Source of the DNA: Rickettsiales bacterium
Lineage (GTDB): Bacteria > Pseudomonadota > Alphaproteobacteria > Rickettsiales > UBA3002
NCBI GenBank assembly: GCA_022763105.1
Contig: JALEGK010000011.1
Span: 15,671-79,670 of the forward strand
Direction of reading: 5' to 3'
DNA: 64,000 nt
Made by a program: the position numbers and the translations under genes
Notes under the pieces: generated by a model
The model's input: the letters and a program-made list of their open reading frames with translations, nothing else
What the model was told of the DNA's origin: nothing
Databases searched by the model: none
Shown: positions 1,970-34,537 of the stretch, one piece after another
Numbering within the stretch: position 1 is the first letter of the stretch
Layout: the number at the start of each line of letters is the position of its first letter

Positions 1970-3682
1970 ATGTTTTTTGGACGCAACAACTCACATAACT
2001 CATTAAACCGCAAAGAACTGGAAGCGCTCGAGCGTTCTCAGGCCGTTATTCGCTTTACGCCGGATGGCAGCATTATCCACGCGAATGAAAATTTTTGTAA
2101 CACCATGGGGTATGATCTTCGCGATATCGTCGGGCAACATCACAGCATGTTCGTTGATCCGGACTACGCACAATCCGATGATTATCGCATGTTCTGGAAA
2201 TCACTGCGACGCGGTGACTTTCTAGCCCAGCAATTTAAGCGTTTTGCCCGAGGTGGACGAGAAATCTGGATTGAAGCATCCTATAACCCGATTCTGGACG
2301 ATGATGGCGAAGTGGTACAGGTCGTTAAATATGCGACCGATATTACCGAGCAGAAAAAACAAGAAGCCTCTTTTAAAGGGCAGCTTGATGCCATTTCGCG
2401 CTCACAAGCCGTCATTGAATTTGAGCTGGATGGCACCATCATTACTGCCAATGAGAATTTCTGCGCGGCAATGGGTTATGCATTAGAGGAAATTCAAGGC
2501 AAGCATCACAGTATGTTCGCTGACCCTGAATATGCTAAAAGCACTGAGTATGGAAACTTCTGGACGCGCTTGCGTAATGGCGAATTCTTCTCTGGTGAAT
2601 TTCAACGTTTTGGTAAAGGCGGCAAAGAAATCTGGATTCAGGCATCTTATAACCCGATCATGGATGCGAGTGGCATCCCCATGCGTGTGATCAAATATGC
2701 CAGCGACATTACCGAACAAAAGACGAAGAACGCCCTATTTGAAGGGCAAATGGGCGCCGTTGAGCAATCTTATGCCGTGATTGAATTTGAGCCGGATGGC
2801 ACCATTATTCGCGCCAACCCCAATTTTCTGGGCGCAATGGGCTATAGCCTAGAAGAAATTGCTGGCAAACATCACAGCATGTTTGCGACGACTGAATATG
2901 CCAGCAGCGCTGAGTATCAACATTTTTGGGATGATTTGCGTGCGGGTCATTTTAACACCGGCTTCTTCCAGCGCTTTGGTAAGGGCGGCAAAGAAGTCTG
3001 GATTCAGGCGACCTACGCCCCGATTATGGATGCGAATGGCAAGGTAATCCGTGTGATGAAAACCGCGATTGACGTCACGGATTTGGTGAAGACCACCCAC
3101 ACGGCAGAAGATGCTTCGGGCAATGTACAAAGCGTGGCATCGGCTGTAGAGGAACTCTCTGCATCGGTGCAGGAAATCACCTGCAACATGTCTGCTTCCA
3201 ACACCTCTACGCACGACATTCTGCAAGTCGCCATTGAGTCTGATGCTGAGACTGAACGGCTGGTTACCAGCATGCAGCAAATGGAAAATGTGATTGAGTT
3301 GATCAACACCATTGCCGGTCAGATCAATTTGCTGGCACTCAATGCGACCATCGAATCTGCGCGTGCTGGCGAGGCTGGTAAAGGCTTTGCCGTGGTAGCG
3401 TCTGAGGTGAAAAGCTTAGCCAATCAGACCACCAAAGCAACCGAAGGCATTACCGCTGAGATTCAGGCGGTTCAGGAGATCTCGCAAGCCGTATCCGAAA
3501 GCGTGAAGCGCATTCGCGAATTTGCCGAAAGCGTGAGTGAGAAAGTATCGGGCACGGCGTCTGCGATTGAAGAGCAAAGCGCGGTCACCAACGAGATTTC
3601 AAGCAATACGCAGCGGGTCGCCAATTCGATCACCGAAATTGCTGGAAATATGCGTCGTGCAACGGGGCAAGAAGCCGCTTAG
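1970..3682 (+). CDS. soluble methyl-accepting chemotaxis protein with three tandem PAS domains
   Basis: ATG at 1970 is preceded by AGGGGGGAA. Three 122-aa PAS-like modules are followed by an MCP signalling hairpin ([32 protein letters not shown]). No TM or HAMP. Confidence 0.9.
2018..3115 (+). repeat. three tandem 366-nt (122-codon) PAS-module repeats inside the MCP gene
   Basis: Modules start at 2018, 2384 and 2750. Shared blocks: SQAVIEFxxDGTIIxANENF, [27 protein letters not shown], VIKYAxDITEQK. Confidence 0.85.
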
Positions 3683-3713
3683 CGATTGGGTGATATCAAC
3701 ATCAAACCATCAC

Positions 3714-3741
3714 ATGACTGACATCAAACAGTCATAATTTT
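3714..3741 (+). terminator. possible weak intrinsic terminator after the MCP gene
   Basis: Inverted repeat ATGACTG(3714-3720)/CAGTCAT(3729-3735) followed by AATTTTG. Confidence 0.35.
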
Positions 3742-3781
3742 GCGCTATTATCTAATTAGTTAGAATATTGCGCGGGATGAG

Positions 3782-4936
3782 ATGGCAGATAACGGCACAC
3801 AAACACCGACAAGGCCCAATACCATTCGGGAAATGATCTCGAATTCGGTCAGCAATTCACGTACACGCACCGATTCAGGCTGGCAGCCTATTAACGGACA
3901 ATTCGTTGATTCGGGGCGCGAGCATTCCATTTTCAAGCTTAAAGGATTCGAGGCTGGTTCACGCCTTAGCAATGGCGAATCATCAGAGAAAGCTTTTGGG
4001 CTTCGTCTATCGAACGAACTGCTAGAAAAACGCGGGCGTACCGAGAAATGGGATTGCCCGGCTCAGACATTCGAGGTCGCACTAAAAAGCACAACACACC
4101 TGACCCCTGCACCGTTCATCTTTAAAGGGTTTGATCTCGGCCAAACCTATTTGCAAGGCGTTGATCGTCAGGGTCAAAAGACCGGCATTGAAGTGATTAA
4201 ACGCATGCCCGGCTTCTCGCTGGAGCGTTGGATGGAGAATTGGAAGAATCGTCAGCATGGCACAGATGATGGCGCACGTCATGCGCTGATGGAGCGTCTG
4301 GTGAGCGACACATCGATTGCTGACAGCAAGATGCCGGAGTTGCAGCATCTTATTGAGCAAGTTGCAGAGCTTGGTTGGTATGGCTTGCATCGTATCGACA
4401 ACCAACTAGCTGCCGTGCCAAGCAACATCTTGATCGAAGATAAGGGCGGCTCATTCTCATTGCATTTGGTGAATCTGACGGGTGAGCATTTAGAGCCTTA
4501 TGCAGAGAAAGGTACCGTCGATAAAACCCGTGCACAAAACGCCATTTACGCAGTGCGCGAATTACTGGGCAATTTGATTCAGGATTTAGCAGGTGAAGAG
4601 GCGGCGCGTAGCTATCGCGATCCTGATGCACCGATGCCAAAGCCAAACACGCCAGCGGGTCGATTCTTAGCGAATGTAAAAGAGGTTTACCGCAATAGTG
4701 ATCTGATTAAGGCACTGAAAGAAACCTATGAGAACCCTGCAAAAGATCGCATGAGCGAGGACCGTGCATTACTAAAATCTCGCTTTCCTGACAAAGAGCC
4801 ACCACTCGCCCATGTGAATATGGGTGTGGTGGGTGCAAACACACAAGGTGTTGGTTTGCAAACGCGTTCACCAAACTTCCTGAAGCTGCTGGACAGCATC
4901 AATAAGCAAATTCAATCAGACGATCGTAGTGTGTAG
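3782..4936 (+). CDS. hypothetical protein with protein-kinase-like motif pattern
   Basis: 384-aa ORF. Motifs in kinase order: FEVALKS (VAxK-like), IKRMPGFSLERW (hinge-like), GLHRIDNQLAAVPSNILIE (HxD...N catalytic-loop-like), HLVNLTG (DFG position, N instead of D). Confidence 0.55.
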   Translation: MADNGTQTPTRPNTIREMISNSVSNSRTRTDSGWQPINGQFVDSGREHSIFKLKGFEAGSRLSNGESSEKAFGLRLSNELLEKRGRTEKWDCPAQTFEVALKSTTHLTPAPFIFKGFDLGQTYLQGVDRQGQKTGIEVIKRMPGFSLERWMENWKNRQHGTDDGARHALMERLVSDTSIADSKMPELQHLIEQVAELGWYGLHRIDNQLAAVPSNILIEDKGGSFSLHLVNLTGEHLEPYAEKGTVDKTRAQNAIYAVRELLGNLIQDLAGEEAARSYRDPDAPMPKPNTPAGRFLANVKEVYRNSDLIKALKETYENPAKDRMSEDRALLKSRFPDKEPPLAHVNMGVVGANTQGVGLQTRSPNFLKLLDSINKQIQSDDRSV

Positions 4937-4949
4937 TTGTAGCGCGTAG

Positions 4950-5300
4950 TTAAAGCGCTGCCGTTACCGTAATTTCCACCAATATATTTGGCTTGGCCAT
5001 TTCCGCCTGCACGCAGGTGCGCGCGGGTCTTGGGCCATCGCCCAGCCATTCGCCCCACACCTCGTTCATTTGCGCGACTTGGGTAATGTCTTTGATATAG
5101 ATGGTGGCCGATAGCATGCGGTTACGGTCGGTGCCTGCCTCGGCTAAATGCTCATCAACGCGCTCTAGCATGGTGCGGGTTTGTTCTTTTAAATCTGCTT
5201 CGTAATCTTTAGCGACCTGTCCGCATAGATAGATAATGCCGTTATGCACGACGGCACGGCTGAGTTTTGGTCCTGATTGGTATCGGGTAATGTCAGTCAT
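4950..5300 (-). CDS. RidA/YjgF family reactive-intermediate deaminase
   Basis: 116 aa, typical RidA-family length and sequence (GQVA...TxxML..V...L..AG........ATIYI.D). Confidence 0.85.
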   Translation of the reverse strand: MTDITRYQSGPKLSRAVVHNGIIYLCGQVAKDYEADLKEQTRTMLERVDEHLAEAGTDRNRMLSATIYIKDITQVAQMNEVWGEWLGDGPRPARTCVQAEMAKPNILVEITVTAAL

Positions 5301-5333
5301 GGATACTCCTTGGTGAATATTCGAAGCGAGACT

Positions 5334-6650
5334 CTAGCTCGCCACCTTCTCGATTGATTCCATTTTTCCTAGCAATTCGAGCACTTCTTTCGATGCGCCT
5401 TCGACTTGTTTGATCTCAGCCAGAGCTGCATCGACCTGACCGCTATTGTAGTATTTCACGGCCTGAATACCGTGCTGATGTACACGCTTGTGAGGGTCGA
5501 CCAACTTTTTATAATCCGCGTTATTTTTGTAGCGCGGGTCTTGGACCGCATCATACCATTTACCCAATCGGCACGTATGATGATCAGCCAGCTCATCTGG
5601 GTTTAACCCTTCGCGCCCGGCGATCATATTGGCTAGGCGCTTCTTCCAAATCACATGATCGGATTGCGCAAGCTTAACTACTTTTGCCGGAACATTCAGC
5701 TCGGCCATAAAGGCGACTTGCACCGAGATCATTTTCTCGACCTCGTTCATGGCGTCGACGATCTGCTCGACATCTTGAACATTCTTCGCGCTGCTTGTCG
5801 CGATAGCGGCCACACCCTCTGCCACCTCGTTCGACGCGACTGCTTGCTCTTGAAGGGTATTAGAAATATGCACCGTATCTTTTGACACTTCATCAATGCG
5901 CTGGCGAATGATGGTGATTTTTTCACTCAAGTCAGCGATTGAAATCTCGCCGGACTCCACAGCTTCCGAGCTGCGCTTCATCGAATCCATGATCGCGCTC
6001 ATATCACTTTTAAGCTGCACGACAATGCTATCAATTTCTTCGGTCGCTTTTGCGGTTTGGTTCGACAAACTCTTCACTTCTGATGCAACCACGGCAAAGC
6101 CTCTGCCCGCCTCACCAGCACGCGCCGCCTCGATGGTGGCATTGAGCGCCAGCAAATTGGTCTGAGATGCGATGGTTTTGATGGTAGCCAGAATATTTGA
6201 AATTTTTGCGGATAGTTCATCCAGCGTTGCAACGCGTTGTCCGGTTTCTTCTACGGTTTGCGAGATATCATTCATACGGTCTTTGGTGGCAAGCGAGGCA
6301 TGCTCACCTTCCATCGTTGCTTCTTGCGCCATCTGCGCTTGATCCGAAATATTGATACCGTATTTGCCAATCTCGCCGACCGTCGCGGTCATCTCCTCAC
6401 TGGCTGCGGCAATCGATTGGGTTTGCTCATCTACCTTGCGCAGGGTAGAAAGCATTTCAGCTGAGAAAATAGCGGTTTCATTCGCTTTTACCGATACGGA
6501 AACGACGCGGCTCATCTCTTCTTCGACGCGCGATCGCAACATAGAAGCCAGTTCATTGAATTTGAGCGCCAGCGAATCATCGCCGTCCATACTCACCGTA
6601 TAATCACCCTGCAAGAGTGCATCAATGGCATCTTCGATTTCTTCTGTCAT
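5334..6650 (-). CDS. cytoplasmic methyl-accepting chemotaxis protein with C-terminal CZB (chemoreceptor zinc-binding) domain, TlpD-like
   Basis: MCP hairpin [33 protein letters not shown]-terminal HVIWKKRL...[10 protein letters not shown]...HKRVHQHG matches the CZB pattern. Start trimmed to the ATG at 6650 (SD AGGGAA) to avoid overlap with osmC. Confidence 0.88.
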
Positions 6651-6731
6651 GATTTCCCTGTTTATTTTTGTGGTCTTAAGCCGTGCCAGAATGCTACATT
6701 TCGCATCATTTTGCAAAGAAAGGATGTCCAA

Positions 6732-7139
6732 ATGGTTGCTATTACCATCGATTATCAAGGAAATTTACGCACGCAAGCCACGCATGAGCCTTCTGGCACT
6801 ACCATGCTCACCGATGCACCGGTTGACAATCATGGCAAGGGCGAGAGCTTCTCGCCGACTGATCTGGTGGCAACCGCGCTTGGCAGCTGCATGCTGACGT
6901 TGATTGGCATCTACGCCAATAAACATAACATTGATGTATCTGGCTCGACGGCACGCGTTGAGAAGTCAATGGCAACGGCACCATCGCGCCGCGTGGGTGA
7001 ATTAAACGTGCATTTGCATATCCCTCATGCGCTGAGTGATGAGCAAAAAGAGATTCTGAAAAAAGCGGCACTCACCTGCCCTGTGCATCATAGCCTGCAC
7101 CCAGACATCTCGATTCCGGTGGAGTGGGAATGGGGTTAA
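6732..7139 (+). CDS. OsmC/Ohr family peroxiredoxin-like protein
   Basis: Two family cysteines in LGSCMLT and ALTCPVH. ATG at 6732 lies after AAGAAAGGA. Confidence 0.85.
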
Positions 7140-11397: not shown

Positions 11398-12219
11398 TTA
11401 AAAGCCAAGCGCGACCACGTCTGCTACAAATTCTTCTGCATCGGCAAAACGAACCTCGTCTTCGCCTAACGTCGTAATGTTGGTGAGTGTTAGGGTGTGC
11501 CCGCTACCAAAGTCGATGACCAAACCGGTTTCTCCAAGTTCAGAATTCTCGATCATGGTGGCGTAATCTTCGATTTCGTTTGAACCTAAACCTGTCGCTA
11601 AGATGAGTACATCTTCAAAGCGGGTGAAATCGCTGACGACATCGACGTTACCGATCTGTGTGAAGAAGAACTGATCCGCACCATCGCCACCAATCAACGT
11701 ATCAGCACCGAGCTGGCCGATCATGACGTCATCACCGTCTTGTCCGTAGATGATATCGTCTCCCGCACCGCCAAAGAGTGAATCGCCTCCGGTGCCACCA
11801 TAAATACTATCGCTGCCACCATTACCCACGACGGTATCAGAACCTGCACCGCCATTTATGACATCTGCATCATCTTCCGGGTGCGCCAGACCGCCGCCAC
11901 CAGATAGCACGTCATCGCCATCTTGCCCGTCAATAATGTCCAGCCCGATACCTCCGTAAATGGTGTCGTTGCCACTATCTAAGCTTTCCTCTAAACCGCC
12001 GCCATAGATGGTGTCGTTACCTGCATTTCCGAACAGCCAATCCTCGCCACCTTCACCTGCCATTACATCGGCTGTGTCGATGGTATCGGCAATGGCAGTG
12101 CCGCCATAGATCGTATCGTCGCCATCGCCACCGAGCATACTGTCGATGCCGATTGTGCCGATTAACGTATCATTTCCGTCTGTACCAATGGTGCTTGAGA
12201 TAGCCGAGCCTCCTGTCAC
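11398..12219 (-). CDS. RTX (hemolysin-type calcium-binding) repeat protein
   Basis: About 15 GGxGxDxxx nonapeptide repeats (GGDGDDTIYGG, GNAGNDTIYGG, GGAGSDTVVGNGGSDSIYGGTGGDSLFGGAGDD) and an acidic/hydrophobic C-terminal tail. The only start is a GTG at 12219, directly after an in-frame TAA, with no SD. Confidence 0.75.
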   Translation of the reverse strand: MTGGSAISSTIGTDGNDTLIGTIGIDSMLGGDGDDTIYGGTAIADTIDTADVMAGEGGEDWLFGNAGNDTIYGGGLEESLDSGNDTIYGGIGLDIIDGQDGDDVLSGGGGLAHPEDDADVINGGAGSDTVVGNGGSDSIYGGTGGDSLFGGAGDDIIYGQDGDDVMIGQLGADTLIGGDGADQFFFTQIGNVDVVSDFTRFEDVLILATGLGSNEIEDYATMIENSELGETGLVIDFGSGHTLTLTNITTLGEDEVRFADAEEFVADVVALGF

Positions 12220-16719: not shown

Positions 16720-17841
16720 TTAGCCTTTATTACCACCAAACATGCCACCGACTGCGTCCCATTCGCTGTCGATTGCTTCCTTCATGGCTTCCATATCGAT
16801 CTCTTCTTCACCCAGCACTGCTTCGCGCTCATCAGCCAGCTTGGCTTCTGCCTCTTGTTTGGCAGCTTGCTGCTCTTGCTCAGATTTGATCGCCCGGGCT
16901 TTATCATCATCCCAATCTTTCAGGCATTCAAACGTCAAGCCGTATTGGGTGCTGCTGCGTGCTGCAACATAGACAGCGACATGTGGCAGGCGCGTCTCGA
17001 TGATTTTGATAAAGCGCTCTCGGATATGGTCTGGGGTGGCACAGCCAAAATAGATCGCATCGATGGCGAGCGGGTTGTATGGCACGTCTTCAAACTTATC
17101 GCGGCTAATACGGCGCAGGCAGCGCCATTCTTTTTCATAAGACCATTCCAGTGCTTTGGTGAAGCACAGATCTTCAAAGACTTTGCGCGGGTTTGGTGGC
17201 TTGGCTACCGCCACTTTGAATAGCTCGTGGTTTAGCGCTTCGGGCATATTATTCGAATATTGCACTGGCTGGCAGACAGCGAAATCGTAAGAGCCATTAT
17301 GACGCTGCGTGCGCAGTTGAATCACCACGCCTTTATGGTTGTCGGCATAATGCGTCCACATTTGCATGTTGTTTTTCGTGGCCGAAGCGCAGAAAAAGCC
17401 CAGCTGTCTTGAGAAGGCATCGACCTGGTGGTTGACCTTGCGCGAGACCTCTTCGATCTTGCGGTATTTCGCCTTAATATTGCTCTCTAGCGTCGCGTAT
17501 AGCTGCTGGCGGTTACTTTCCTGCTCGCGCTTGATCGACATAATCACCGACTTGATCGCCGGATTCATATCGCCACCTTCAAAGTACGGGTTGGAGACCA
17601 TGGTGCGCGCTTCACGCATGAATTGCTTGGTTTCCTGATCGGCATCAAACTTACGCAGCAGATCAAACTGCATCTCGTACGGATCGTGGAATTGGTCTTG
17701 CAAGCTCCAGCGGAAAACTTGTGATTCCACGGCATTCATGCCGGCATCCAAATCCATATATTTATATAAGGTCACATTTCGCTTCTGTGACAGCATCTCT
17801 TTGAGGTCTTCGGTAAAGATACGTTTGACGGCTTCTTCCAT
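16720..17841 (-). CDS. DUF2971-like protein with acidic/Lys-rich coiled C-terminus
   Basis: N-terminal LYKYMDLDAGMNAVESQVFRWSLQDQFHDPYEM resembles the DUF2971 signature (Y.Y....l....l.fs....fNDP.E). Identification is from memory only. Confidence 0.5.
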   Translation of the reverse strand: MEEAVKRIFTEDLKEMLSQKRNVTLYKYMDLDAGMNAVESQVFRWSLQDQFHDPYEMQFDLLRKFDADQETKQFMREARTMVSNPYFEGGDMNPAIKSVIMSIKREQESNRQQLYATLESNIKAKYRKIEEVSRKVNHQVDAFSRQLGFFCASATKNNMQMWTHYADNHKGVVIQLRTQRHNGSYDFAVCQPVQYSNNMPEALNHELFKVAVAKPPNPRKVFEDLCFTKALEWSYEKEWRCLRRISRDKFEDVPYNPLAIDAIYFGCATPDHIRERFIKIIETRLPHVAVYVAARSSTQYGLTFECLKDWDDDKARAIKSEQEQQAAKQEAEAKLADEREAVLGEEEIDMEAMKEAIDSEWDAVGGMFGGNKG

Positions 17842-17993: not shown

Positions 17994-19241
17994 TTAATCA
18001 TCCGTCATTTTGAGGGCTGCGATAAAGGCGCTTTGCGGGATATCGACATTGCCGATAGAGCGCATCTTTTTCTTACCTTTTTTCTGCTTTTCCAGAAGCT
18101 TGCGCTTACGGGTAATGTCACCGCCATAGCATTTTGCGGTCACATCTTTACGCATGGCAGCGATGGTCTCGCGGGCGATGATTTTACCGCCAATTGCGGC
18201 TTGCACCGGAATCTTGAACAGGTGGCGTGGGATGAGGTCTTTGAGCTTCGCGCACAAAGCCCGACCACGTGTTTCTGCCTGGCTGCGGTGGACCATGAGC
18301 GCCAGCGCATCGACCGGCTCGCTATTGACCAGCACGCTCAGCTTGACCAGATCACCCGGCTCGTGGCCTGCCATTTCATAATCGAAAGACGCATAGCCTT
18401 TTGAGCAGCTTTTTAGACGGTCATAAAAATCAAACACCACCTCGTTGAGCGGTAGCTTGTAAATCGCCATGGCGCGGGTGCCGACATAGGTCAGCTCTTC
18501 TTGCACGCCTCGTTTTTCGGTACATAGATTCAGCACATTGCCCAAAAACTCGTCGGGCACCATGATGGTGGCACGAATCCAAGGCTCGCGCACTTCCTGA
18601 ATTTTGACAACGTCGGGGTAATCGACCGGATTGTGCAGCAAAATCTCTTCGCCATCGGTCATGGTTAGCTCATAGACCACGCTTGGCGCGGTGGTGATCA
18701 GATCGACATCATATTCGCGCTCTAGCCGTTCTTGAATAATCTCTAGGTGCAGCAGCCCCAAAAAGCCGCAGCGGAAGCCTAGTCCCAATGCCGACGAGCT
18801 TTCTGGCTCGTAAAGAAAAGACGCATCATTCAGATGCAGCTTGCCCAAAGAATCGCGCAAGTGGTCATACTCGCCATTATCCGTCGGGTAGATACCGCAG
18901 AACACCACAGGCTGCACGGGTTTGAAACCTGCGAGTGGCTTCTCGGTCTGGCGTTTTTCTTCTGTAATCGTGTCACCGACCTTGGTATCGGCCACCTGCT
19001 TAATACCGGTGATGATATAGCCAACTTCACCCGGACCAAGCGATTTGACTTCTTCCGTCTTTGGGGTGAATACGCCCACCTGGTTCACATCTTGCGTGAC
19101 TTTCGCATTCATGAAGCGGATTTTCTGGCCCTTCTTCAGTTCGCCCTCATAGACGCGCACCAAAATAATGACGCCGAGATAGGTGTCGTACCAGCTATCG
19201 ATGAGTAGCGCTTTGAGCGGATTATTGATCAGACCAGACAT
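17994..19241 (-). CDS. lepA: elongation factor 4 (LepA), C-terminal piece (domains II-V plus CTD); gene interrupted
   Basis: [30 protein letters not shown] ... [24 protein letters not shown] ... [23 protein letters not shown]. 415 aa, no frameshifts. The ATG at 19239-19241 directly abuts the resumed LepA sequence. Confidence 0.9.
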
Positions 19242-20887
19242 GGGGCATGGTTATGCACGACTAACACGGCGTTGACAACCAGTAGATCGTATAAAAACAC
19301 GGTTATTTTTGGCCATCCTAAGGCTTTATTAATATTTTGATGCTAGGGTACGATGGGGAAATAAACACATCTTTACAGGGATTTATGGCCACCAACTGGG
19401 CAAAAGAACTAGAAGCATTGGGTATCACGCTGGGCCGAGTCGAGCGCGATCCTGCTAAACGTGCAAAAAGTTTGGCTGGAGAGTCAGTCAAATTACCTGC
19501 CACAGCGCAAGCATGGCTAAATGCCAGAACAACAGATGACACACTGATCGACCCCGCTATTGCTGGAAACGCCAAGATGAGAGCCTTGTTTGAGTTAACT
19601 CAGGCCGAGGCATCGCTCGGCAATATGGCAAACAGGCTTTATAATGGTGGCATAACACATGTGATTTCTGTCGATGAAACAGAATTTATCCTCGGCAGGC
19701 CTGATAGTACCAAGTTTGACGAAGGTGGCATATATTTGCAAAAAGAGAAGCTCTCTACCACAGAGCTCGCTTCTTTAAGCCAAGATGTTATTGTGCATGA
19801 GGCTGGACATGCGGTTAGCTATCTACTGGCCGAACCAGTGCAAGATGCGATTGATCGCCATTTGCCTGAAGCGATTAGCGCATTCAAAAAAGACATTAAA
19901 GCATTGCCACCTGAAACATGGCAAGCGCTTAAAAGCCATTCCAACCCAATGGTACAGACATGGGCTTCGACACAAGGCAAGCTTCATCAAGATTTGGTCA
20001 ACCGCCCGAGTGGTACGTTGCATTACCTTGAAATTGTTATGAACCCTGATGATTATAAGCTTGGCAATTATATGGTTGATCCATTTTCTTCTACGCTTAC
20101 TGCTATTGGGGCCATCAATTCTGATCCGGAATTAGCCAAACATTTCCCACAGCTGACCGGGGTCAGAGACAAACACCAAGCCATTTTCAGCACCATTCAA
20201 ACAGAAGGGTTTGCACTTAAAATGATTGGGGAGATTGCTCATCACCCCAAGCTGATGGAGGCTATGAAAAAAGATATTGAGCATATCAAGCGAAATGGTT
20301 ATGCAGCCAGCAATGATGGGTATTTGCGCGGGCATCCTGCCGGTGATTTTAATGCACATCATTATTTAACACGTGCTTTGGGCGGCGAGCATGACACCGA
20401 GCCACAAATGGCTACAGAAGCATTTGCCGAGCTCTTTGCAGATGTTGTAACCGGTACGCAAAACCCGCGCTTATCTGTTTACATGCCCAATATGACCAAA
20501 GAAGTGTCTGCTTTGGTTCATACGTTGAAAGATACCAGTTTAGGGGTCGCCAAAGACAGAAAGGCAGCCGTTACTGTTGATCAAGGTGGCGCAGAGCAGC
20601 CTTTGACTTGTGGGTTCGCTTTTTCGAAGCTGGATGATGCCATTAAAGACACAATGAAAACCGCCCGCGCTACTGGCGTGGCGTATGACCGAGATGCCGC
20701 TTTAACGTCTGGACTTAAAAAGATTCGCGAAGAGACCGGACAGTCTGAAGGCATGTCTGATGCTGATATGCTAGAGAAGATTAAAGCGGATGGGTGCAGC
20801 TTGCCCATGATGCTGAAGAATGCGAAGGTTAAAGACGATGCTCAACCGGCTAAAGACGGTCAGGGGCGATAGCGCAATCTAATAGGC
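19239..20887. other. 1649-bp insertion interrupting lepA; no transposase, integrase or reverse transcriptase
   Basis: Boundaries were inferred by matching LPAP (20888-20899) and [11 protein letters not shown] (from 19238 downward) to the conserved PxP-x6-PL(K/Q)AL spacing of intact LepA. The insertion contains one opposite-strand ORF. Confidence 0.7.
19385..20872 (+). CDS. HExxH zincin-like ORFan (putative metalloprotease) carried by the lepA insertion
   Basis: HEAGH at 19796-19810 and TEAFAELFAD at 20414-20443. The ORF is open from 19337; the ATG at 19385 is preferred. At least five in-frame AGA/AGG Arg codons. Confidence 0.65.
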   Translation: MATNWAKELEALGITLGRVERDPAKRAKSLAGESVKLPATAQAWLNARTTDDTLIDPAIAGNAKMRALFELTQAEASLGNMANRLYNGGITHVISVDETEFILGRPDSTKFDEGGIYLQKEKLSTTELASLSQDVIVHEAGHAVSYLLAEPVQDAIDRHLPEAISAFKKDIKALPPETWQALKSHSNPMVQTWASTQGKLHQDLVNRPSGTLHYLEIVMNPDDYKLGNYMVDPFSSTLTAIGAINSDPELAKHFPQLTGVRDKHQAIFSTIQTEGFALKMIGEIAHHPKLMEAMKKDIEHIKRNGYAASNDGYLRGHPAGDFNAHHYLTRALGGEHDTEPQMATEAFAELFADVVTGTQNPRLSVYMPNMTKEVSALVHTLKDTSLGVAKDRKAAVTVDQGGAEQPLTCGFAFSKLDDAIKDTMKTARATGVAYDRDAALTSGLKKIREETGQSEGMSDADMLEKIKADGCSLPMMLKNAKVKDDAQPAKDGQGR

Positions 20888-21451
20888 TGGCGCTGGAAGT
20901 CGGGTGACAATCGCTTCCAGTAAATCTTCAATACCTATTCCCGTTTTGGCCGAGACCATCGCAGCATCCGATGCATCGATGCCGATCACCTCTTCGATTT
21001 GTTCTTTCACACGGTCTGGCTCAGCCGCGGGCAGATCGATCTTGTTGAGCACGGGGATGATCTCTAGATCCTGATCGATGGCTTGGTAGACGTTTGCAAG
21101 CGTTTGCGCTTCTACGCCTTGCGCAGCGTCAACAACCAGCAGCGCACCTTCACACGCACTTAAACAACGTGACACTTCGTAGGCAAAGTCAACGTGACCC
21201 GGCGTGTCCATTAGATTGAGTATATAGGTTTCGCCATCTTTTGCTTTGTAAACCAAACGCACCGTTTGCGATTTAATGGTAATGCCGCGCTCGCGCTCAA
21301 GCTCCATATTATCGAGCATCTGCTCTTGCAAATCGCGCTCTTCCACAGCGCCACAATGCTGAATCAGTCGGTCAGCCAGCGTCGATTTGCCGTGATCAAT
21401 ATGGGCAATGATCGAAAAGTTGCGGATGTTTTGTGGTTTATCTTGAGCCAT
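20879..21451 (-). CDS. lepA: elongation factor 4 (LepA), N-terminal GTPase-domain piece; gene interrupted
   Basis: [15 protein letters not shown] (G1), DTPGHVDF (G3), LNKIDL (G4). Ends [10 protein letters not shown]-stop (TAG at 20879-20881). Confidence 0.92.
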
Positions 21452-21493: not shown

Positions 21494-22156
21494 TTATCGG
21501 TCCTTGGAGTGGCTTTGGTCATGAATGAGCTGCTCATACATATCTTGAGCCAACACGGCTGAGGGAATCGCGCCGCAAATCATAGTCAGATTCGCCACCA
21601 CGGCTTCTGAGAATTTGGTGTTTGCCCCAATTTTCACTTCGTTAAAGGCGTATTTATCAAGCGCCTTTTCAGCGTCGCCAATGAAGTTATTGATGGCCTT
21701 GTTGTTGCCCTTGCCTTTGCGCATGAAGGTATTGGCTAGCTCCCACGCGGTTTGTGATCCGGCAACGCCTGCCAGCCAGCCGGTAGCCACGCGGCGCGTG
21801 TCTTGGCCCACACTGTAATCTTTATCGGAACCTTCACGATCTCTTCGTCTGCGCGCTTGGCCTACCGCTGTGGTGACGGTGGTGGTGAAGCCAGCGGCAT
21901 ACATGACCGCGTTATTGACGATCATGCGCGAATATTCATGGGTATATTCCGGCGAGAAATCGGGGCGGTATTTCTGCACAATCTTCTCTACTGCCTGTGC
22001 TGCATGGTCCAGCTTGGTAGGCGCCACGCTACGCCCCACCCATACCGCGCCAATGGCAGCGGCGATGCCCACAATCTGGCTTTGGACAAACTCCATCGCC
22101 CGCGCGCTATGCACGTTGCTTTTGCTTACTTCCTGCGATGTGCCTTTATCGCTCAA
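21494..22156 (-). CDS. hypothetical membrane protein (ORFan)
   Basis: 220 aa with hydrophobic segments (IVGIAAAIGAVWV, AVMYAAGFTTTV, LTMICGAIPSAVL). TTG start at 22156 after GAAAGG. Stop lies 42 nt upstream of the lepA start. Confidence 0.5.
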   Translation of the reverse strand: MSDKGTSQEVSKSNVHSARAMEFVQSQIVGIAAAIGAVWVGRSVAPTKLDHAAQAVEKIVQKYRPDFSPEYTHEYSRMIVNNAVMYAAGFTTTVTTAVGQARRRRDREGSDKDYSVGQDTRRVATGWLAGVAGSQTAWELANTFMRKGKGNNKAINNFIGDAEKALDKYAFNEVKIGANTKFSEAVVANLTMICGAIPSAVLAQDMYEQLIHDQSHSKDR

Positions 22157-33490: not shown

Positions 33491-34537
33491 TTATAGACGT
33501 TTTGGTCCATCATCGCGCTTTGGCAAGGATGCATCGAGTGGGCGCATTTCCGCATCAGCATCCAACGTAATCTTCGTCTGATCAGGCAACACACCTTTGG
33601 TAATAATGTCATTCGGCTTATGCTCTGCATTTGGCGGAATGAACGTGGTTCCAGCCTTCTCCCAAGCCGTGATCGGTCTGAACGTACCGCCCGTTTTAGG
33701 GTCTAATACTGCCTTAACCCAAGACACGTCTGATGTATTTGATTGTCGGCTTTGCAGCGTATATTTGGCTTGGATCTTTCCTCTATCCGTCACCAATTCT
33801 TGCAATGGCAGGATCAGATCGGACTGGTTATCGAGCACAAACGCGCCTTTATCGGTATTCACCGTTAGGAACACATGGCCTGCCCCATCTTGTTCTTTCA
33901 CTACAGTTAGAAACAGCGCGCTTACAGGCAAGCCATTCTCGCGGAAATACTCTTTTAGCATCACATATTTCGTGAGTGCATATTCGTCGCAATCGCCTTT
34001 TACTTTCGGAACAAACGGAATGCCGTCCCTTAATTCCATCAACCAGCCCGTAGGGTTACTCTTCAATAATCGCGCTTGCCGGTTGGCCTCATCCATTACG
34101 TGAGCTCGTTGCTGGTAGAAAATCCAGTTTTCGTCGCGTTTTCCTTGTTCAGGGTTCTCATCATCTTTTACTCCCACAATAAACTCGTCGACCCGACGGT
34201 CCACCTCATTCATTTTGGTCCATAAGTCTCGTGTGAGCTTTACGACAAACCCGCCTTCCGTATCAGGCTGAACGGTTCCGCCCTTACCGTTTGGTCTTTC
34301 TTCTGCAACAATACGCGTTGCGGTGCGCACCTGTGCTGGCGTGATTGGTTCTCCATTATAGATAGGAGGCGTGAGACCAGCGCTGACAAAGGCTTTCTTC
34401 GTATCGTCGTCCTTGATGGCGGCAAACATCTGTCTCAGCCCTAATGGCGGCTCAAGAAAGCTATTGGAATGGGCAAAGCGTTGATAGCTCTCCCCTTCTG
34501 GGTATGGTTGTATCGTGTAAAACGGTTCATCTGCCAT
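33491..34537 (-). CDS. transglutaminase-like cysteine protease (BTLCP / peptidase C93, LapG-like) with N- and C-terminal extensions
   Basis: Cys-His-Asp pattern: GDCDEYALTKY ... GAGHVFLTV ... FVLDNQ. The upstream MNEVDRRVDEFIVGVKDD...ENW resembles the BTLCP N-lobe. No signal peptide. Confidence 0.65.
   Translation of the reverse strand: MADEPFYTIQPYPEGESYQRFAHSNSFLEPPLGLRQMFAAIKDDDTKKAFVSAGLTPPIYNGEPITPAQVRTATRIVAEERPNGKGGTVQPDTEGGFVVKLTRDLWTKMNEVDRRVDEFIVGVKDDENPEQGKRDENWIFYQQRAHVMDEANRQARLLKSNPTGWLMELRDGIPFVPKVKGDCDEYALTKYVMLKEYFRENGLPVSALFLTVVKEQDGAGHVFLTVNTDKGAFVLDNQSDLILPLQELVTDRGKIQAKYTLQSRQSNTSDVSWVKAVLDPKTGGTFRPITAWEKAGTTFIPPNAEHKPNDIITKGVLPDQTKITLDADAEMRPLDASLPKRDDGPKRL

Follow-up and report, generated by a model that had tools for sequence, protein, structure and literature searches.

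The 64,000-nucleotide stretch of a Rickettsiales bacterium genome analyzed here (contig JALEGK010000011.1; called the window throughout) carries lepA, the gene for elongation factor 4 (EF4), in two minus-strand pieces, and an open reading frame (ORF) for a zincin-like protein lies between them on the plus strand (19337-20872, 511 amino acids (aa) when read from its TTG). This arrangement raises the question of whether the ORF is the cargo of an insertion that disrupted lepA, as an earlier note on this DNA had it, or whether the gene merely occupies the space between two lepA genes. The explanation that we favor, and that as a whole we hold to be probable though well short of certain, is that the ORF belongs to a rare zincin family and is an accessory gene that circulates horizontally, that lepA is a two-gene system here with an ordinary gap between its halves, and that the zincin gene was not the cause of a recent disruption of lepA. 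The widespread and selected splitting of EF4 is the most notable thing in the region.

The N-half of lepA holds a complete EF-Tu-type G domain, and residues 3-415 of the C-half align to intact LepA directly past the linker between domains I and II (Table 1). We used the C-half to determine how LepA is distributed, taking the best 120 LepA clusters. Thirty of these 120 consisted of a C-half only (411-433 aa, with no G domain); all 30 started with M-x(1-12)-(P)LKALLxDSW at the same domain I/II linker, and they were 75-88% identical to the window protein. In two further loci, L001 (GCA_964564675.1) and L090, relatives of the zincin gene (P0002 and P0005, respectively) are likewise flanked by the two lepA halves, which are encoded on the strand opposite to theirs. 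The N-half ends with PPPAGN and a stop codon in L001, where the C-half starts with MSDALDQEPLK, with PSP and a stop in L090, where the C-half starts with MTDLLSKPLK, and with PAPAY and a stop in the window; intact relatives read RLPAPK-GELDEPL across the split point. Because lepA is split at the same linker in at least 30 related clusters, with different genes or none in the gap, the zincin gene is not a fresh insertion, and the description of it as the cargo of a lepA insertion is not supported. By contrast, lepA was intact in 80/80 other alphaproteobacterial genome loci examined. In a metagenome scan with the tail of the N-half, lepA was unsplit throughout among the matches listed and intact in 79/80 loci, the exception being L155, where an in-frame stop interrupts the conserved DSWYD motif (DS-stop-YD, about 1075-1158) through either a sequencing error or a pseudogene. 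Full-text literature searches found no published report of a split EF4/LepA or of any other split translational GTPase.

Among the window, L001 and L090, nonsynonymous divergence (dN) of the N-half was 0.08-0.13 and that of the C-half 0.10-0.16, synonymous divergence (dS) being saturated in both cases; for the zincin gene dN was 0.75-0.78 among the same three loci. This pattern indicates that both lepA halves are under strong purifying selection and are probably functional genes. We therefore propose that lepA in this alphaproteobacterial group would consist of two genes, divided at the linker that joins the G domain to domain II. In the LepA tree intact LepAs are nested among split ones: bootstrap support is 95% for the grouping of P0029 and P0030, and 68% for that of P0019 and the window. 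The linkers of two nested intact forms are long, 14 residues in P0029 and 24 in P0022 vs the usual ~6, and SDDPRSLPL in the P0029 linker matches SENPRELPL at the head of its split sister P0030. This match fits re-fusion by deletion, and the long linkers could be scars of re-fusion; independent fissions of lepA may be the alternative.

The C-half probably has its own promoter. Upstream of it, in DNA that is otherwise unalignable, the pattern TTGnnn-17-YAYAAn-7/8-ATG was present in 5/6 loci (the window, L001, L090, L104 and L108); it occurred once in the 64-kb window, exactly at the C-half, compared with 4.7 occurrences per Mb over all the DNA that was fetched. A simple sigma-70 scan of the 143-nt divergent region returned no promoter, and it missed the conserved element because the last -10 position, which is C, A or G, was excluded by the scan. 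No Shine-Dalgarno sequence precedes the ATG of the C-half, and the distance from the -10-like box to this ATG would fit a leaderless mRNA, so the C-half transcript is probably leaderless. The element is common to loci with and without a zincin gene.

The contents of the gap likewise suggest that it would be an ordinary intergenic site, occupied by different genes in different lineages. In the window neither terminal inverted nor direct repeats were found at the gap ends, there was no target duplication, and searches of Pfam, NCBIfam, PHROGs and PADLOC found no recombinase, nuclease, transposase or reverse transcriptase domain in the gap, as the earlier note had said of transposase, integrase and reverse transcriptase; the fold matches of the zincin protein are peptidases. 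On the Tara Oceans contig L104 the gap is taken up by two ORFs, an unrelated one of 422 aa whose composition is host-like and one of 82 aa, and in two more lineages (L094-L103 and L108) no N-half lies within 5-6 kb of the C-half. At least five members of the zincin family lie outside lepA, in varied contexts, some of them between unrelated housekeeping genes.

The zincin gene itself looks foreign to its host. Its GC content at third codon positions (GC3) is 0.442 vs 0.572 +/- 0.043 for the 41 other window ORFs (z = -3.1), it is the worst fit to window codon usage of all window ORFs (z = -2.5), and AGA/AGG make up 6/19 of its Arg codons vs 39/854 elsewhere in the window, so that the impression of foreign codon usage gained by eye is upheld by calculation. 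The same was true of the family: in 9/9 hosts examined GC3 was 0.33-0.45 and AGA/AGG were enriched relative to the neighbors, including in L001, whose neighboring genes have GC3 of 0.66-0.76. One relative, P0004 on L089 (1-5326), is carried as sole passenger, next to tnpA and a resolvase gene (tnpR), by a small but complete transposon of the Tn3 family. The 30-nt terminal inverted repeats of this transposon are perfect and lie exactly at the two ends of the 5.3-kb contig. When this inverted repeat was compared by eye with the gap ends, only a 6-nt GTGCAT was common to them, which we judged to be chance. Because of the low GC3 and the AGA/AGG enrichment in every host, the presence of P0004 in a Tn3 transposon and the varied contexts, the family appears to be horizontally mobile as a passenger, and presumably the copy in the window was acquired by such a route.

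In three lineages the family occupies the lepA gap, and both its position and its orientation agree among them, which may favor one old gain. Several gains may be favored by the lasting foreign composition, by non-monophyly in a saturated tree and by the differing gap contents of intervening lineages. The gap copies are only 32-35% identical to each other, and in this saturated and unresolved tree they are not monophyletic, being no closer mutually than to the non-nested P0003 or the Tn3-borne P0004. These observations leave room for two readings in which the gap plays a more active part. The first, which we consider unlikely, is that EF4 works as two polypeptides in a broad uncultured alphaproteobacterial group and that the gap is a preferred landing site that captured the zincin gene more than once with no recognizable recombinase; if true, this would imply a hitherto unrecognized mechanism of site-specific capture, or a functional link of the protease to the split EF4. 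The second, more doubtful still, is that the zincin gene sits in a mobile cassette that lands repeatedly and site-specifically in lepA or in the lepA gap, i.e. the gene-targeting element of which the ORF had been suggested to be the functional module. The shared position and orientation in three lineages, the foreign composition in all three (including the host with GC3 of 0.66-0.76), the lack of any closer kinship among the gap copies and the interleaving of split and intact lepA in the LepA tree are in keeping with such a cassette. However, the gap shows no recombinase, nuclease or reverse transcriptase domain, terminal repeats or target duplication, unrelated genes occupy other split lepA loci or the halves are unlinked, the identity among the gap copies is unlike that of a recent spread, and the C-half promoter does not depend on a zincin gene being present. 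The contexts of the homologues, whose inspection had been suggested as a check, thus gave a divided answer, with three lineages inside the lepA gap and at least five members elsewhere; since most of the family lies outside lepA, the notion of a gene-targeting element is not supported, and we return to the preferred reading of a passenger gene in an ordinary gap.

We turn to the protein that this gene encodes. The true start is likely the ATG at 19385, giving 495 aa, and the TTG at 19337 is unlikely, because all homologues begin with M-x-T-(D/N)-W aligned to that Met; residues are numbered from this ATG, so that E361 of the earlier note is E345 here. The ORF list and the alignment of homologue starts thus bear out the existence of the ORF, the preferred ATG and the motif positions given before, and the 6-nt interval between the converging stop codons is also as described (20870-20872 for the zincin ORF and 20879-20881 for the lepA N-half). 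The frame stays open for 495 codons in DNA of 47% GC, and an open frame of this length, together with catalytic motifs kept in relatives at 21-33% identity, is far beyond chance. The ORF is thus a genuine gene, and its zinc-protease-like product is rare and evolves fast. The protein has neither a transmembrane segment nor a signal peptide (maximum KD19 0.82), as had been noted, and it gave no match in Pfam, NCBIfam, PHROG or PADLOC; a PDB sequence search with the single protein returned nothing.

Homologues were sought by an exhaustive HMMER search against 1.84 billion cluster representatives, which detected 16 homologue clusters (E 8e-48 to 5e-5, identity 21-33%). The gene is therefore rare but not an ORFan, a label that had been too strong. 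Word-index searches, whether with the ORF or with the family alignment, recovered only the ORF itself, tblastn found no phage or plasmid homologue, and a metagenome scan with a five-member family alignment yielded no confirmed locus. The family is very rare, fast-evolving and previously unannotated, with no entry in Pfam, NCBIfam, PHROGs or PADLOC. In the alignment of 17 sequences G89, H92, G115, H138, E139, H142, A293 and D297 were invariant and E127, S145, H326, Y327, G334 and E345 nearly so, and these residues make up the motifs NxGxTH, AVTE, HEAGHAxS, AYxxDL, HYxP and EEAFAE; E349 is less conserved than E345. P0005 and P0013 retain both motif helices but lack some 130 residues of the segment that connects the HExxH helix with the AYxxDL helix, so the missing part is an insert. 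A further feature of the family is an N-terminal stretch of about 60 conserved residues for which no counterpart is known. None of the members has a transmembrane helix, and a signal-like N-terminus, which would bear on the effector or toxin-like role that the earlier note put forward as a possibility, was present only in P0014. A positively charged C-terminal tail that might serve as a type IV secretion signal was considered and rejected, the net charge of the tail ranging from -4 to +3 across the family.

We modeled the protein with AlphaFold2. From the single sequence the model was useless, with a predicted local distance difference test score (pLDDT) of 44; with the family alignment pLDDT was 78.2 and the predicted TM-score (pTM) 0.71, and the elements predicted with high confidence were strands 91-95, 115-118 and 123-127, the helix 133-172 that carries HExxH and the helix 339-356 that carries E345. 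A Foldseek comparison of this model with the PDB placed anthrax lethal factor first (E 0.037, probability 0.90) and in all of ranks 1-4 (E 0.037-0.22, probability up to 0.91), followed by PPEP-1/Zmp1 (TM-score normalized to the target 0.33-0.37), Certhrax and MATCAP. The full family profile had PPEP-1 as its best PDB sequence match (E 1.1), and when the insert was spliced out PPEP-1 was again the top match (E 0.3), with the HExxH and Glu helices aligned in order (HEagHAL to HETAHAI and rEEaFAEiF to PEEFFAESF). A search of viral folds gave only weak matches, to polyvalent-protein, MuF and IrrE-like zincin domains (best E 2.9e-3). The earlier identification of a zincin therefore stands insofar as HExxH, the distal E345 and an upstream His-Tyr pair are invariant or nearly so, the motif helices lie confidently behind a small beta-sheet and the best matches are lethal factor and PPEP-1, and it falls short in that none of the matches is statistically significant; the Foldseek check that it had called for had the same outcome, with lethal factor and PPEP-1 on top but E never below 0.001. 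Because of this lack of significance no family membership is claimed: in our reading the protein is probably a zincin with a gluzincin-type site laid out as in MEROPS family M34, not a demonstrable M34 member.

These features suggest how the protein could act. The active site would follow the gluzincin pattern of anthrax lethal factor and PPEP-1, with zinc bound by H138 and H142 of the HExxH helix and by E345 of the E-x-F-A-E helix; E139 would activate a water molecule, Y327 would stabilize the tetrahedral intermediate, and the edge strand of a three-stranded sheet in front of the helix would be presented to an extended peptide substrate. About 135 helical residues are inserted between the two motif helices, and the protein has no export signal. 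Zinc binding and peptidase activity are thus predicted from the conserved residues and the model, and we commit to the view that the protein is probably a zinc-dependent peptidase acting on a protein or peptide substrate and encoded by a horizontally circulating accessory gene.

Several points weigh against this explanation. No known peptidase family is similar at significance: none of the 17 family members has a Pfam match, the E-value for PPEP-1 does not fall below 0.3 nor any Foldseek E-value below 0.037, TM-scores are low (TM 0.16), and hhalign gave E. coli MtfA a probability of 6.5%, although that alignment spans the strands, HExxH and the following helix; the MtfA family of Pfam, PF06167, does not match the zincin family. 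Y327 stands 18 residues ahead of E345, with a variable loop between them, vs 7 residues in PPEP-1 and lethal factor. The Tn3-borne P0004 has HEGFGH (HExxxH) where the others have HExxH, so that not every family member need be active. Repeated capture at the lepA gap may have occurred, given three lineages with the same orientation, foreign composition in a host with GC3 of ~0.70 and non-monophyly in an unresolved tree. Lastly, that the two EF4 halves assemble and work is deduced from conservation only.

The protein could alternatively have a zincin-like fold and be no peptidase at all, acting instead as a binding or regulatory protein, as MtfA does to Mlc, or as another kind of hydrolase. This reading gains from the lack of a significant peptidase match, from the large helical insert and the conserved N-terminal region with no known counterpart, and from the absence of an export signal, but at an overall identity of 21-33% the family has kept all the catalytic residues (H, E, H, distal E and Tyr) with little or no variation, as expected of an active enzyme and not of a scaffold, and we regard this alternative as improbable. 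That the ORF is a functionless, decaying foreign relic and lepA here a two-piece pseudogene is hardly credible: the atypical codon usage and fast evolution of the ORF (dN about 0.75) point that way, as does lepA not being required in E. coli under laboratory conditions according to two reports (PMC4324249, PMC4245954), but this reading is already contradicted by the conservation data, i.e. by 495 open codons, zincin frames that are also open in L001 and L090 despite saturated synonymous sites, conserved catalytic residues, and lepA halves with dN of 0.08-0.16 at saturated dS, frames intact in about 30 lineages and a conserved promoter.

Table 1. Features of the lepA locus, with positions in the window
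Feature	Position	Strand	Evidence or remarks
Gene for 495-aa zincin-like protein (P0001)	19385..20872	+	ORF list, homologue N-termini, 16 homologue clusters, AlphaFold2 model
G-I-T-H (G89...H92) of the N-x-G-x-T-H motif	19649..19660	+	G89 and H92 invariant in 17 sequences; at the start of modeled strand 91-95, the first of the sheet in the catalytic domain
HEAGH; H138 and H142 proposed zinc ligands, E139 proposed catalytic base	19796..19810	+	Invariant in 17 sequences; near start of helix 133-172, pLDDT 92-94; aligned to HETAH of PPEP-1
H326-Y327; Tyr with proposed oxyanion-hole role, as Tyr178 in PPEP-1	20360..20365	+	Nearly invariant; role inferred
TEAFAELFAD; E345 (20417-20419) proposed third zinc ligand	20414..20443	+	E345 nearly invariant; helix 339-356, pLDDT about 95; aligned to PEEFFAES of PPEP-1
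Gap between lepA halves, 1637 nt	19242..20878		Zincin gene and the 143 nt upstream of it, nothing else
lepA N-half, EF4 G domain, 190 aa, ends in RLPAPAY and stop	20879..21451	-	PF00009 (GTP_EFTU), E 8.5e-58
lepA C-half, EF4 domains II, III, V (EFG_C) and CTD (LepA_C), 415 aa	17994..19241	-	Pfam
Promoter-like element and start codon of lepA C-half	19239..19278	-	TTGTCA (19278-19273), 17 nt, CATAAC (19255-19250), 8 nt, ATG (19241-19239)

Other genes of the window and of the related loci deserve mention in their own right. Directly downstream of the lepA C-half, a DUF2971 protein (16720-17841, minus strand) matches the PADLOC candidate defense family PDC-S31 (E 4e-42) and phrog_1762 (E 5e-42). 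Directly upstream of the N-half, a 220-aa protein (21494-22156, minus strand) has no family match and a syntenic 233-aa counterpart in L001. The second-worst codon fit in the window is that of a BTLCP-type transglutaminase-like cysteine peptidase (Peptidase_C93; 33491-34537, minus strand), with AGA/AGG at 5/20 Arg codons and GC3 of 0.50. L001 also encodes a 1097-aa glycosyltransferase-HAD fusion resembling sucrose-phosphate synthase (3487-6780, plus strand), whose composition is strongly foreign, with GC3 of 0.39 and AGA/AGG at 29/71 Arg codons in a host with GC3 of about 0.70. Near the zincin homologue P0006 in L007, a Rap1a-type type VI immunity gene is preceded by a 405-aa ORF with no family match (2574-4163). 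The window further encodes an RTX calcium-binding repeat protein (11398-12219, minus strand), which is likely a type I secretion substrate, and two chemoreceptors with PAS or CZB domains; judging from the RTX protein and the chemoreceptors the organism looks free-living and motile.

The split lepA matters more than the zincin family. A translational GTPase with a separately encoded G domain, maintained by selection in about 30 lineages, would allow a direct test of trans action on the ribosome by the G domain of an EF-G-like factor, and the split genes form a natural system in which to study gene fission, and possibly re-fusion, at a domain linker. There is also a consequence for annotation: proteins of 411-433 aa that are called 'Elongation factor 4' in these metagenome-assembled genomes are not truncated gene calls. 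The zincin has an unusual layout, in which active-site halves like those of lethal factor and the PPEPs are parted by a helical insert of ~135 residues, and it is a modest addition to the zincin catalogue.

Among known peptidases the protein is most like family M34 (lethal factor; PPEP-1/Zmp1, PPEP-2 and PPEP-3). This comparison uses the ligand numbering known for lethal factor and, for PPEP-1, Glu185. HExxH is part of the active-site helix, which lies behind a small sheet that has an edge strand, the distal Glu is part of a helix of the E-(E)-F-F-A-E type with a Tyr upstream of it, and M34 ranked first both among the fold matches and among the profile matches, in the latter of which the two motifs aligned in the right order, at scores that are not significant. 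The architecture of the PPEPs has been described, as has the part that Tyr178 of PPEP-1 plays in the oxyanion hole (PMC12828418). By analogy Y327 could possibly be the functional equivalent of the M34 oxyanion-hole Tyr, although it precedes the Glu by 18 residues and the M34 Tyr by 7. The HExxH-to-Glu spacing is about 200 residues in the zincin vs about 40-45 in M34, because of the helical insert; the zincin family has its own conserved N-terminal region; and whereas the PPEPs are secreted and M34 is found in Firmicutes, the zincin has no signal peptide and is found in Alphaproteobacteria. MtfA is cytoplasmic, has HExxH and a distal Glu, and folds like lethal factor. The zincin resembles MtfA (MEROPS M90, E. 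coli b1976) in having HExxH and a distal Glu and no export signal, but differs from it by the hhalign and PF06167 results given above.

The comparison with the passenger genes of Tn3-family transposons holds for P0004, whose only neighbors within the perfect 30-nt repeats are the genes for a DDE_Tnp_Tn3 transposase and a resolvase, whereas the window has no transposase, resolvase or inverted repeat and its zincin gene is fixed in a chromosomal gap. Some genes are naturally split and have products that assemble, e.g. rpoC1/rpoC2 of cyanobacteria. The lepA of this group is like them in that a conserved protein is encoded by two separately started ORFs cut at a domain boundary, with purifying selection on both halves across many lineages, but unlike them its halves are parted by an opposite-strand gene or unlinked, and intact forms are nested among the split ones.

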